The position numbers and the translations under genes are program-made. A DNA stretch of 64,000 nt from an uncultured Actinomycetota bacterium (GTDB taxonomy: Bacteria; Actinomycetota; Acidimicrobiia; Spongiisociales; UBA5794), in the NCBI GenBank assembly GCA_963700375.1, contig CAVOXF010000007.1, positions 1,010-65,009 on the forward strand, given 5' to 3'. A model generated the notes under the pieces. It was given only the letters and a program-made list of their open reading frames with translations. It made no database searches and was not told where the DNA came from. This document shows, one piece after another, positions 921 through 4,644 of this stretch; the first letter of the stretch is position 1, and each line of letters starts with the position of its first letter.

Positions 921-1147
921 CACCGGCCGACCGAGCGACTACCCACCGCCGCCACGACTCTGACTCAGACTCCACCGCCCATATCCGGCTGGGTGTGTTG
1001 ATTTGCGATGATCAGGGTGGTGTTGCACGCCCCGGTCGGGCGGTGAGGGTCCGGTTGAACTGATACGACCAGTTCGGTTGGTCTCGGTCCGCCGTCCCGG
1101 TGGCGTGTGCCACCCCTTCCGCCTGTTAGCGAGAGAAAGGGGCGGTC

Positions 1148-2186
1148 ATGTCGATGGTATCCAGTGTGGTTGGTGGTGTGGACACGCATGCCGATGTGCA
1201 TGTGGCAGCGGCGCTCGATCAGAACGGTGGTTTGTTGGGGATCGAGTCGTTCCCGGTCAACGAGGCCGGCTACCGGCGGCTCGCCGAGTGGCTCGCCGGG
1301 TTCGGTCCGGTCGTCAAGGTCGGTGTCGAGGGCACCGGGTCGTATGGCGTCGGCCTGGCCCGACACCTCCACGCCAATGGCATCGAAGTGGTGGAGGTGG
1401 ATCGGCCGAATCGTCAGAAGCGCCGCAAACTCGGCAAGTCGGATCCGATCGACGCCGAAGCCGCAGCACGTGCCGCCCTGTCCGGGGAAGCGAACGTGAC
1501 GCCGAAGCGGCGTGACGGGACTGTGGAACAGATGCGGGTGTTGATGATCGTGCGGGGGTTCAGCGCGGATGCAACGCAATCAGACGTTGAACCAGCTCCG
1601 GCAGATCGTGATCTGTGGCCCCGACGAGATCCGGACACGTTTCAAGGACCGATACAAGACTGGCTTGGTGACTGAGGCTGCTGCGATGCGGCCGCGTAAG
1701 GGTTCCGACCCGATCACATACACGACGTATGTGGTGATCCGTAGTCTCGCCCGTCGCATCAAGGACCTCAACGACGAGATGCGCAGCATCGACCAAGCTC
1801 TCACCGAGTTGATCGGCGCCACGGCGCCTTCGCTGCTCGAGTGTTACGGCGTCGGTGCCGCCACCGCCGCCACACTGCTCGTCACGGCGGGCGACAACCC
1901 CGACCGGCTCCACACGGAACGGTCGTGGGCGCATCTGTGCGGTGTCTCACCGGTCCCGGCCGGATCGGGGAAGACCAGCGGACGGGTCCGTTTGAATCAT
2001 GGCGGAGACCGCAACGCCAACGCTGCGCTCTACCAGATCGTCCTCACCCGCATGAGCAGCGACGCCGAGACCCGCAACTACGTCAGGAGACGCCGAGCCG
2101 AAGGCCTCTCCACACGCGAGATCATGCGCTGCCTGAAACGCTACGTCGCCCGACAAACGTTCAAACACCTGCCCCGAGCAGCATGA
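1148..2186 (+). CDS. IS110-family DEDD recombinase/transposase (one frameshift near 1554-1558)
   Basis: RuvC-like motifs GVDTH, VEGTGSYG, KSDPIDA (ORF 1148-1675) and C-terminal GVSPVPAGSG..RLNHGGDRNANAAL (ORF 1569-2186). The frame changes at a G5 run. Confidence 0.92.
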
Positions 2187-2192
2187 AGATCC

Positions 2193-2348
2193 GGTGGGTG
2201 GGGTCTGACCCAGTATCCGGCTGACGCACCATTTCTGGTGCTGTCCTCGTAATGACCTGTCGACCCCACCCGCCCATCCGCCAGGGCGGTGTGACCTCAT
2301 AGGAGCCTGCCACCAACACGGTGTCGCCCAACCCAGTCCTGTCCACCC
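2193..2348 (+). ncRNA. Putative IS110 bridge RNA (target-binding and donor-binding loops)
   Basis: 13-bp stem 2193-2205/2262-2274 encloses an internal loop and the hairpin GCACCA-tttc-TGGTGC. A second loop spans 2284-2348. Loop segments match both element junctions. Confidence 0.7.
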
Positions 2349-2391
2349 AACCCGAAAGCACCTTGACAAAACAGCGCACATAGGAGAGTCA

Positions 2392-2900
2392 TTATGTTCG
2401 GCGGCCGGCGAGGCCGTGGCAGTGCTTGTACTTCCGGCCTGACCCGCACGGGCATCGTTCGTTGCGGCCGATCTTGGCGGACCCGTCGAGTAGGGGACGT
2501 GAGCTTTGACGCAGTTCAGCCTGTCGCTCTCGGGCCTCAAGTTCTTCCTCCCAACGTCGCAGTCGCTCTCCCCGCTCGCGTTCCGCCGCCTCCGCATCGA
2601 CCTCACGCTCTCGGAGTGCGATCTTGGCCTGCTCGACTCGCCAGCTCTTCTTCGGCACGTTCAGCGAACACTGGCACCTCGTCACCGGGGATGTCACCGA
2701 ATACGCTCACGAGCTCGCGGTCGATGAGCATCATGATGGCCCGGCCCATCGAGATCCCCGCTGAGTCGCAGTACCGCTTCCACGTCGCCCACTTCGCCGC
2801 CGTCACCGGAACCCGGACCATCCGGTACACCTCGTCGTGGCCGAGGCCGGAGAGCAGCTTGCGGTCGATCCTCGCCAGCGTGCCTCGTATCGAGTTCCAT
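2392..2900 (-). CDS. RHH-like / coiled-coil / SEC-C motif protein (frameshifted)
   Basis: Joined frames give [62 protein letters not shown], then an E/R-rich coil, then [19 protein letters not shown] (SEC-C). Confidence 0.7.
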
Positions 2901-2930: not shown

Positions 2931-3277
2931 CGGGCAACTTGTTGCAGGTGCGTGTGTGATTTGGGGGTGTCTGCGCGCATCTGCGATGAGGCGGCCGGCG
3001 TCGTGGCCGTTCTTCGGATCGTTGCGGTCGTGGATGGCATTGGCGGTGCTCCGATTGTGTTCCGGGGGTTCTCGATCGTGGGATTGCCGTGGCGTCTTGG
3101 TTCGTGTTGGATGCAGAGATTGGTCCCGTGCCTGGGTTCTGGCCGACCCAGATAGGGCTCGGACGGATCGTTCAGCCCTTGAATCGCCAACCGGACCAAC
3201 GGGGCCGTCATCGACGACGGAATCTCCACTGAGGCCAACGAGCGTTGAGTGCTCCATGTCCACGGAATAGACACGCC

Positions 3278-3444
3278 AACCCTCTCACCAGAGTGTCAGT
3301 AACCCTTTCACCAAAGTGTCAAGGACCCTCCAATCCCTGTCGTGGACAGCGTTTTCGGACCGTCGGATCACGGATCCGCCGACGTCGAGTTTCTGGCGAA
3401 TGACTGTCGAGTTGGAGGGCTGCTGACACTCTCGCGAGAGGGTC
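3278..3444. repeat. 23-bp-phased direct and inverted repeats upstream of the integrase
   Basis: AACCCTCTCACCAGAGTGTCA (3278-3298), AACCCTTTCACCAAAGTGTCA (3301-3321) and an inverted copy at 3424-3444. Degenerate copies near 3324 and 3401. Confidence 0.75.
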
Positions 3445-3492: not shown

Positions 3493-4644
3493 GTGCTCGT
3501 GGCATCGATCCGCAAAGTCGTCCACCGCACCGGCCGCATGTCGTGGCAGGCCCGGTGGCGGGACCCGACCGGGGTCCAACGGTCGAAGAACTTCGGTCGC
3601 CGCATCGACGCCGAACGGTTCCTCGTCACTGTCGAGGCCCGCAGACTCGCCGGCACCTACATCGACCCCAGGGCCGGACGGATCCACCTCGGCGAGTTCA
3701 CCCAGCAGGCGACCGCGGGGTGGGTGAACCGCCGCGACTCGACCAAGGCCCGCGACGAGTCGTATCTGCGTAGCCTCGTCCTGCCCGTCTTCGCCGACAT
3801 GCCGATCGGCGCCATCAGTGTCTTCGACGTCCAGGAATGGGTTTCGAACCTCGACGCCGACGGCTACGCCCCGGCCACCATCCGCAAGGCCTACCAACTG
3901 CTGGGACGGATCTGCAACGACGCCGTCAACGGTGGCCTCATCGCCCGCACCCCCTGCCGCGACGTCACCCTGCCCAAGATCGAACAGACCGAGAAGCGGT
4001 TCCTCTCCCCCGACGAGATCACCCGGCTCGCCGACACCATCCACCCTAGATACAGGGCCCTCGTGATCACCGCGGCGTACACGGGCTGTCGCATCGGGGA
4101 ACTCATCGCCCTCGACACCAACCGCTACCAGCCAGACAAGCGCATCATCCGGATCGAACAGTCCCTCGCCGAAGTCCGCGGCCACCTCCGCTTCGGACAA
4201 CCCAAGACCGCCGCCGCCCGACGCGCCGTCACCGTGCCATCATGGCTCCCCCACGTCATCGACCAGCACTTGGCCGACTACCCGCCCGGACCCGACGGTC
4301 TGATCTTCACCGCGCCTGAAGGCGGACCCATCCGCCGCAACACGTTCCGCAGCCGCTTCTGGCTCCCCGCCGTCGCAGACTCGGTCGCCGAGCCGATGAG
4401 GTTCCACGACCTCAGACACAGCCATGTTGCGCTGCTGATCGCCGAAGGCGCCCACCCTGCCGTGATCGCCTCGAGGCTCGGACACACCAGCGTCAAGACC
4501 GTCCTCGACGTCTACGGCCACCTCTACGAAGGCCTCGACCGCAATGCAGCCGACACGTTGGACCCTCCCTGGGACCCGTCTGATGTGGACGCATTGTGGT
4601 CGCGGCGCAACCGACACCGTGATCAAGGAAGGGGGCTGACCTAG
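3493..4644 (+). CDS. Tyrosine recombinase / phage-type integrase
   Basis: N-terminal arm-binding-like WQARWRDP; catalytic motifs TGCRIGE, PKT, HDLRH, LGH, Y (DVYGH); SD AGGAGG; ends 31 bp from a tRNA 3' end. Confidence 0.95.
   Translation: MLVASIRKVVHRTGRMSWQARWRDPTGVQRSKNFGRRIDAERFLVTVEARRLAGTYIDPRAGRIHLGEFTQQATAGWVNRRDSTKARDESYLRSLVLPVFADMPIGAISVFDVQEWVSNLDADGYAPATIRKAYQLLGRICNDAVNGGLIARTPCRDVTLPKIEQTEKRFLSPDEITRLADTIHPRYRALVITAAYTGCRIGELIALDTNRYQPDKRIIRIEQSLAEVRGHLRFGQPKTAAARRAVTVPSWLPHVIDQHLADYPPGPDGLIFTAPEGGPIRRNTFRSRFWLPAVADSVAEPMRFHDLRHSHVALLIAEGAHPAVIASRLGHTSVKTVLDVYGHLYEGLDRNAADTLDPPWDPSDVDALWSRRNRHRDQGRGLT

Follow-up and report, generated by a model that had tools for sequence, protein, structure and literature searches.

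A bridge RNA encoded behind the recombinase gene of an actinobacterial IS110-group insertion sequence

In a 64,000-nucleotide (nt) stretch of contig CAVOXF010000007.1 from an uncultured bacterium of the Acidimicrobiia (Actinomycetota), hereafter the window, positions 989-2390 most likely form an insertion sequence (IS) of the IS110 group whose bridge RNA (2191-2365) is encoded directly behind the recombinase gene, having been relocated there from the 5' side; we put the probability of this reading at roughly 85%. The finding is real, representing a known type of system in a permuted variant with the bridge RNA 3' of its gene, and an initial annotation, which had proposed from the bare sequence a bridge RNA with target- and donor-binding loops at this position, is borne out by stem covariation, covariance-model matches and tests of guides against flanks. 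In IS110-type elements the RNA lies in front of the gene and in IS1111-type elements behind it, a split that is attributed to an ancient translocation of the RNA. Coordinates refer to the window and its plus strand unless stated otherwise; C2 and C4-C7 denote contigs of the window's own genome and L-numbers denote related loci.

The region that follows the recombinase gene has the anatomy expected of a bridge RNA, starting 5 nt after the stop codon (which ends at 2186). The 13-base-pair (bp) stem at 2193-2205/2262-2274 (with one G-U pair) and the inner hairpin at 2226-2241 are present as first described, and TGACC and CCTGTC frame both loops, at 2206-2210 with 2256-2261 and at 2292-2296 with 2338-2343. 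The target-binding loop (2206-2261) holds a left guide in the sense orientation (2214-2221, the match running to 2223) and, beyond the inner hairpin, an antisense right guide with a 2-nt handshake segment (2248-2256). The sequence TATCCGGCTG read at 2214-2223 recurs identically at the left junction (982-991), and CGTAATGAC at 2248-2256 is the reverse complement of GTCATTATG at 2388-2396 save for one G-T wobble. In the donor-binding loop (2292-2343) the left donor guide CATAGGAG (sense, 2298-2305) is identical to the right end of the element at 2379-2386, and ACCCAG (2331-2336) is the reverse complement of CTGGGT at 989-994. All four correspondences had been noted in the initial annotation; when G-U wobble pairing is allowed, the last grows to 8 nt, with the right donor guide and its handshake (2331-2338) antisense to 987-994 through one G-U pair. 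As a control, the four loop strands were set against 20,000 pairs of 30-nt segments drawn at random from the window; runs as long as those seen (10, 9, 8 and 8) were reached in 3, 87, 10 and 70 pairs, and all four jointly in none.

A search of species-representative genomes with the C-terminal open reading frame (ORF) of the recombinase gene returned 80 loci. The 14 closest (80-94% identity, from metagenome-assembled genomes (MAGs) of Acidimicrobiia and Actinomycetota) have the same 3' region, and more distant relatives (44-53%) have the same motifs, but upstream of the gene. We built an alignment of 21 sequences (A1) and a covariance model (R1) from the window RNA and its relatives. The outer helix in A1 comprises 15 pairs that are 92.7% paired, 8 of them altered on both sides in a compensatory manner, and its covariation score of 0.309 compares with 0.138 in shuffled alignments (0 of 500 reach the observed value) and at most 0.112 with slid partners; the outer stem of the donor loop is less supported, with 75.1% paired. 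R1 found 76 matches in 85 sources, the window RNA standing at the top with 148.7 bits (E = 6e-36). With filters off there was no clear RNA match at seven loci (L033, L045, L069, L077, L078, L089 and L094), of which L033 is truncated by a contig end.

The association between guides and flanks was tested on loop strands cut from the model alignment (A2), the position of each element's right junction being taken from its left-donor motif and that of its left junction from its right donor guide. For the right junction, the right target guide with its handshake bases was set, as reverse complement, against the 10 nt that follow the donor motif; the two agree at 6.75 of 10 positions, compared with 4.23 in permuted pairs (53 distinct pairs, 0 of 5000 permutations). 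Restricting the comparison to the 5 nt that belong to the flank gives an agreement of 3.25 against 1.53 (0 of 5000), and one row per distinct guide (n = 24) gives 3.33 against 1.46 (0 of 5000). The left target guide agrees with 9 flank-only nucleotides at 6.38 positions, against 3.48 when permuted (n = 42, 0 of 5000). Lineages with very different targets each match their own: right flanks beginning TTTTC, TATCC, GGGA, ATTT or TCGT are matched in this way, as are left flanks ending in CCAAAAAC, CTTGAAAAC, CACTCCGA and GAATTCTGTA. The first handshake base equals the right-end base in 40 of 53 rows. On the donor side, 13 of 17 lineages have a right donor guide that locates the left end of the same element with no fewer than 7 of 8 positions matching, compared with 24 of 146 trials with foreign guides; the left donor guide is nearly invariant and therefore gives no covariation. 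Because the flanks lie outside the element, the family-wide association of guides with flanks cannot stem from sequence exchange within it.

The boundaries of the element are placed at 989/990 and 2389/2390 by a paralogous empty site and by the divergence of flanks among relatives. On its right the element is flanked by the 3' end of a SEC-C-motif gene, of which there are paralogues; next to a 93%-identical one on C5 lies an uninterrupted site (C5:12016-12033, CGCATATCCGG-CA-TTATGTTCGG) that equals the window's left and right flanks joined. The inserted unit is therefore 989/990-2389/2390, with C (C989 and C2390) the sole base common to both junctions. In 14 related loci the similarity stops directly after TCA and the flanks beyond differ, and in one contig from an RNA library the match to the window ends at 2391. 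The non-coding left end (989-1147) begins with the right-donor sequence CTGGGT (989-994), followed by a GATGAT motif (1007-1012) and a long hairpin at about 1015-1115, and is 78-98% identical in relatives. The right end (2379-2391) consists of the left-donor motif, the handshake positions (A)GT and the dinucleotide CA, and is homologous to the right end of relatives that carry the RNA 5' of the gene.

The left flanks of the relatives all resemble the left half of one palindrome, whose arms end in CATA and start with TATG around a 6-8-nt spacer, with the element inserted in the spacer. In the window the left half of the disrupted target (975-988, ending in CCGCCCATATCCGG) is kept before the left ends of 8 relatives and of copies in the same genome, and the right half (TTATGTTCGGCGG, 2392-2404) overlaps the stop codon of the SEC-C-motif gene (2392-2697, minus strand). 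Similar palindromes (GCCCATAGGTGCCGATATGGGC, in either orientation) form clusters, often near contig ends, in which neighbouring sites are 0.4-2 kb apart; eight of them lie at C5:2670-11623. Further sites lie at C7:497-518, C7:113034, C7:114199, C2:534484-540020 and C6:781702-817959, and the window's target (975-988 plus 2390-2404) is a variant of them. Counted over the whole genome, the palindromic site occurs 24 times against 16 in a reversed-sequence control, so that local clustering is supported and overall enrichment is not.

Besides the window copy, the genome holds no second full copy; it has a C-terminal fragment with its RNA (C5:159516-160051), an N-terminal fragment on C6 and about nine short left-end copies. 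Solo copies of the half-site with the first 33-145 nt of the left end stand at C2:536042, C4:255416, C5:9746, C5:130614, C5:159082, C6:412495, C6:808821 and C6:824833. At the C2, C4 and C5:9746 copies a palindromic site follows directly (a full one at C2 and C5:9746), and those at C2:536042, C5:9746 and C6:808821 have about 45 nt more in common further left. Such solo copies could be deletion scars or a small repeat in its own right.

All family members have a right end composed of T(A/G)(G/A)GAGC, 2-3 further bases and the crossover dinucleotide, which in the window reads CATAGGAG-AGT-CA. The bases between donor motif and dinucleotide pair with the handshake guide of the target loop, and the offset of the left donor guide is thus a trait of the family, not a misplacement. 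The initial annotation had noted junctions about 2 nt out of register and had concluded that the crossover core could not be placed exactly; the offset stands, as a family feature, and the conclusion does not, since C989 and C2390 can be assigned as the ends.

The recombinase gene itself (1148-2186) encodes a DEDD/IS110 protein and is broken by a 1-nt insertion at about 1550-1558 (a G run occupies 1554-1558), so that it reads as two ORFs, 1148-1675 and 1569-2186. The domains DEDD_Tnp_IS110 (PF01548, E = 7.6e-18) and Transposase_20 (PF02371, E = 7.2e-16) fall one on each half, and both are found on a single 345-aa protein in L024. Similarity to characterized recombinases is weak but specific (ISCro4, E = 2.9e-6; IS621, E = 4.3e-6). 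Of the seven close relatives examined, three (L022, L024 and L028) have uninterrupted 345-aa genes, and L018, L020, L026 and L030 are interrupted.

Several observations weigh against the reading of 2191-2365 as the relocated bridge RNA of this element. The initial annotation had suggested folding the region and comparing it with covariance models, and here the outcome was mixed: the folding energy of 2187-2389 is ordinary (z = -0.66; 53 of 200 shuffles fold equally well or better), an Rfam scan of 800-2600 gave no match at E values up to 10, and it was the purpose-built model R1 that found its 76 matches. Given the unremarkable energy, the support comes from comparison with relatives and not from thermodynamics. 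The 8-nt match of the left donor guide stops 3 nt short of the crossover base. In the clade to which the window belongs, the signal between guides and flanks is weak, being equalled in 226 of 5000 permutations for the right flank and 705 of 5000 for the left, and at an A/T position of the left guide 4 of 9 copies have the fitting flank base. All copies in this clade use nearly one site, which leaves little power for the test; the covariation of loop segments with their sites that the initial annotation had proposed as a check thus holds across the wider family (0 of 5000 on each side) and is weak close to the window.

The junctions themselves also pose a difficulty. They have only C in common, the left one reading CT and the right one CA in all clade copies examined (9 left, 15 right), whereas relatives with a 5' RNA repeat the whole dinucleotide, CA or CG, at both junctions. 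In the window's clade each guide fits its own junction, CT in the case of the right donor guide and CA in that of the right target guide, and a simple exchange around a shared dinucleotide does not account for this constant CT/CA pair. The window gene carries a frameshift, and the assembly yielded no intact copy; judged from its sequence, this copy is probably not autonomous, and it could move only with recombinase supplied in trans. Contigs from RNA libraries cover 2251-2391 in one of the four runs examined (X15), and these derive from relatives 90-99% alike. Six such libraries hold small shares of the window stretch, and the leader (1007-1229) is covered by contigs in all four runs examined; the contigs are of low depth and come from relatives, and hence are no proof of transcription, start, end or strand. 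Finally, the trees considered below are midpoint-rooted without an outgroup and their inner supports are weak (15-65), so the direction of the move rests mainly on a relic in the left end and on the literature.

The position of the RNA relative to the gene differs sharply within this one family. Among the 76 R1 matches, 57 lie within 260 nt upstream of the gene and 15 directly after the stop codon (the window and L018-L031); three lie elsewhere, and one is a fragment in the window's own genome (L002), with the RNA behind a gene remnant. At L033, a 50%-identical relative, an RNA starts right after the stop codon and the contig then ends. A second scan with the L033 protein as query added further lineages, among which L102, L104, L106, L107 and L114 also carry a 3' RNA. 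It further includes five dual elements (L098, L099, L100, L101 and L119) with two modules around one gene, the 5' module scoring 48-72 bits and the 3' module 88-99 bits; in L098 the modules lie at 1867-2037 and 3113-3299 of that locus. Only the 3' RNA of the dual elements has the donor strand CAUA(G/A)GAGCCUG and guides that match the outermost ends, which places both modules in one element. The 5' module is without a donor strand, and its loop strands show no consistent match to ends or flanks. Among four of the dual elements, identity is 91-97% for the 5' module, 81-93% for the 3' RNA and 72-83% for the genes. Elements of the L104 type retain a shrunken 5' module.

In the window, positions 1068-1120 are a relic of the ancestral 5' bridge RNA, comprising the right-donor-guide strand, the YUGUCC motif, the outer stem's 3' strand and the spacer. 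In pairwise local alignment with the 5' RNA and spacer of relatives this segment scores 37 with L036 (0 of 200 shuffles), 38 with L046 (1 of 200), 40 with L101 (0 of 200) and 27 with L098 (0 of 200). It is visible by such alignment only, a covariance-model search for a 5' remnant in the window having given a non-significant 4.6 bits (E = 0.13). The left end (989-1147) folds at -77.9 kcal/mol (z = -3.73, 0 of 200 shuffles), with the long stable hairpin (1015-1115) conserved in the recombinase leader of relatives and its 3' arm overlapping the relic. A quick maximum-likelihood tree built from 81 recombinases unites the 3' and dual lineages in one subclade (SH-aLRT 88) with the 5'-only elements L032, L036/L046 and the L038 group, and this subclade sits among 5'-only lineages.

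This evidence favours a history in which the RNA module was duplicated to the 3' side and the 5' copy then decayed, a step-by-step route that we infer from sequence comparison. A more elaborate version is possible, although we hold it to be doubtful: all stages of the relocation would survive, from 5'-only elements through the dual ones (L098-L101 and L119) and the shrunken 5' module of the L104 type to the window's relic in the leader hairpin. The 5' module of the dual elements, being more conserved than the gene, would then have acquired a new, non-guiding job, such as control of recombinase expression or of excision, and the window hairpin would be its descendant.

Two further features of the element touch on this history. 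The segment 2177-2206, which spans the last codons, the stop codon and the first stem strand, resembles the starts of the left ends of 5'-type relatives for 2 of 15 targets (L036, score 24, 0 of 300 shuffles; L034, score 18, 4 of 300); this may be a trace of an old junction of right and left ends, but is suggestive only. A perfect TTGACA (2363-2368) is conserved in the 3'-RNA clade, and we considered whether it could form a promoter with the GATGAT of the left end at the circle junction. The window type has 22 extra bases that set TTGACA and the left-end hexamer 37-39 nt apart, so there is no such promoter; only L028 has a 17-nt spacing, and its circle junction would give TTGACA-17 nt-CATGAT.

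Comparison with described systems places the element close to IS621 and the IS110 group, as presented by Durrant et al. 2024 (PMC11208160) and Hiraizumi et al. 2024 (PMC11208158). It has in common with them a DEDD plus Tnp recombinase, a single RNA with target- and donor-binding loops, the lack of long inverted repeats and targets that are repeated palindromic sites. In IS621, as these papers describe it, the left guides are sense and pair with the bottom strand, the right guides are antisense and pair with the top strand, and the right guides are followed on their 3' side by two handshake bases; the window RNA has the same arrangement. It departs from the IS110 group in that the RNA lies 3' of the gene, 5 nt past the stop codon, with only a relic on the 5' side; the 'vast majority' of that group is said in PMC11208160 to have the RNA 5' of the gene, wording that implies exceptions. 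Unlike IS621, moreover, the window's junctions have one base in common and not a dinucleotide, the handshake positions separate its left donor guide from the crossover, and its protein shows only distant similarity (E about 4e-6 to 8wt6).

The nearest comparison is with relatives that carry the RNA in front of the gene (L034, L036 and L046, from Acidimicrobiia and Actinomycetota MAGs, and L065-L097 from Micrococcaceae). Their RNAs belong to the same family (47-138 bits with R1), their right end likewise reads T(A/G)(G/A)GAGC-nT-CA, they have a GATGAT motif near the left end, and L034, L036 and L046 have the same CCGGC left guide and AAUGA right guide as the window. They differ from the window in carrying the RNA 40-100 nt ahead of the start codon and in having a right end that comes directly after the stop codon or overlaps it. 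Judged by sequence, the window RNA is the IS110-type RNA of these relatives, shifted to the 3' side, and not an RNA of the IS1111 type. As in the IS1111 group described by Siddiquee et al. 2024 (PMC11187229), the RNA lies downstream of the transposase gene and insertion is into palindromes that resemble recombination sites or REP sequences; unlike that group, the window element is without subterminal inverted repeats of 7-17 bp, has the guide order of the IS110 type and has an RNA homologous to IS110-type RNAs encoded 5' of their genes. For the guide order of IS1111 elements the comparison is with their published description. ISPpu9 of Pseudomonas putida is alike by description (PMC12288879), being an IS110-family element in REP sequences with the small RNA gene for Ssr9 downstream of its transposase.

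The alternatives to a relocated IS110-type RNA were weighed against the same evidence. That the 3' position is ancestral in the subfamily and the 5' position derived, with the dual elements in transit from 3' to 5', would suit trees that are only midpoint-rooted with weak inner branches, and also the better conservation of the 5' module in the dual elements (91-97% against 81-93% for the 3' RNA). We nevertheless consider it quite unlikely, since a decayed piece from the 3' half of a 5' RNA survives in the window's left end and the shrunken modules of the L104 type are likewise decay products of a 5' copy, since the RNA is 5' in most branches sampled and in the IS110 group at large (as worded in PMC11208160), and since in the dual elements it is the 3' RNA alone that has the conserved donor strand and the end-matching guides. 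An ordinary IS1111-group element with its usual right-end seekRNA or bridge RNA is very unlikely for other reasons. An RNA 3' of the gene and a palindromic repeat target are both described as typical of that group (PMC11187229, PMC11208160), but the longest inverted repeat between the ends of the window element is 6 nt and is itself the right donor guide, a length that 1970 of 3000 random pairs of 60-mers reach or exceed, and the statement in the initial annotation that there are no obvious inverted repeats is thus sustained. The same covariance model, moreover, has 57 related matches in which the RNA precedes the gene, and the guide order, sense left first and antisense right second, is that of the IS110 type, the order of target-matching segments in IS1111-type seekRNAs being described as reversed (PMC11187229).

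It is highly improbable that the RNA is not a working guide, whether as a dead relic in a decaying element or because its matches arose by sequence exchange between the ends and the interior. The frameshift in the window gene, the interruption of four of the seven close relatives examined, a genome that otherwise holds fragments only and the lack of transcript evidence in the RNA-library contigs would all be in keeping with a relic, but the window RNA scores best in its family with all stems intact, and the same RNA accompanies the uninterrupted genes of L022, L024 and L028. Exchange is countered by the family-wide association with flanks, which lie outside the element. Extremely improbable, finally, is a chimeric origin, in which the RNA would be the 5' RNA of a second, lost element that once followed in tandem. 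The resemblance of 2177-2206 to the left-end starts of L036 and L034 could be taken as a sign of it, but 15 loci from different genomes are arranged alike, the right-end motif following the RNA at a distance of 13-25 nt and the flanks past it being unrelated. It is evident from the empty site that 989-2390 was inserted as one unit, and the donor guides match exactly the outer ends of this unit.

For a relocated bridge RNA of the IS110 type, the following mechanism can be proposed. The RNA, which has two internal loops each closed by UGACC and CUGUC, would be transcribed and processed from the 3' untranslated region of the recombinase gene. In the first loop, the 5' strand is a copy of the left flank as far as the first crossover base and would pair with the bottom strand; the 3' strand is complementary to the crossover dinucleotide and the right flank and would pair on the other side, and two additional handshake bases in this loop are the complement of the bases that close the element's right end. 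The second loop corresponds in like manner to the element's own right and left ends. By homology with IS621, a recombinase tetramer may hold the RNA and catalyse the exchange, and the RNA would bring the joined ends of the circular element to a palindromic chromosomal site, insertion taking place in the central spacer. As to how this arrangement came about, a second RNA copy may have arisen behind the gene, after which the copy in front would have degenerated, leaving the relic at 1068-1120 in the left end, where the hairpin forms.

A tyrosine recombinase gene (3493-4644, Phage_integrase, E = 2.2e-17) lies on the same strand 1.1 kb downstream of the element, beside small genes. It might be part of an integrative element, or of a site-specific system that acts on the palindromic sites.

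Bridge RNA recombinases are a young field, dating from 2024, and a platform for genome editing. For that use the family would offer compact actinobacterial orthologues with natural variants of the guides. The 3' position would also alter the regulatory logic, because an integrated copy could make the RNA within the transcript of its gene; the bridge RNA of IS621 is described as weakly expressed from integrated copies (PMC13626964). The main interest, however, lies in a relocation of a bridge RNA that can be traced through surviving intermediates: with one RNA family found in front of, behind and on both sides of closely related genes, and a relic at the vacated place, the translocation becomes reconstructable and testable. 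Should all of its stages indeed survive as outlined above, the family would illustrate a way in which the architectures of IS110 and IS1111 could have diverged, and the 5' module of the dual elements would represent a second functional class of RNA derived from bridge RNAs.

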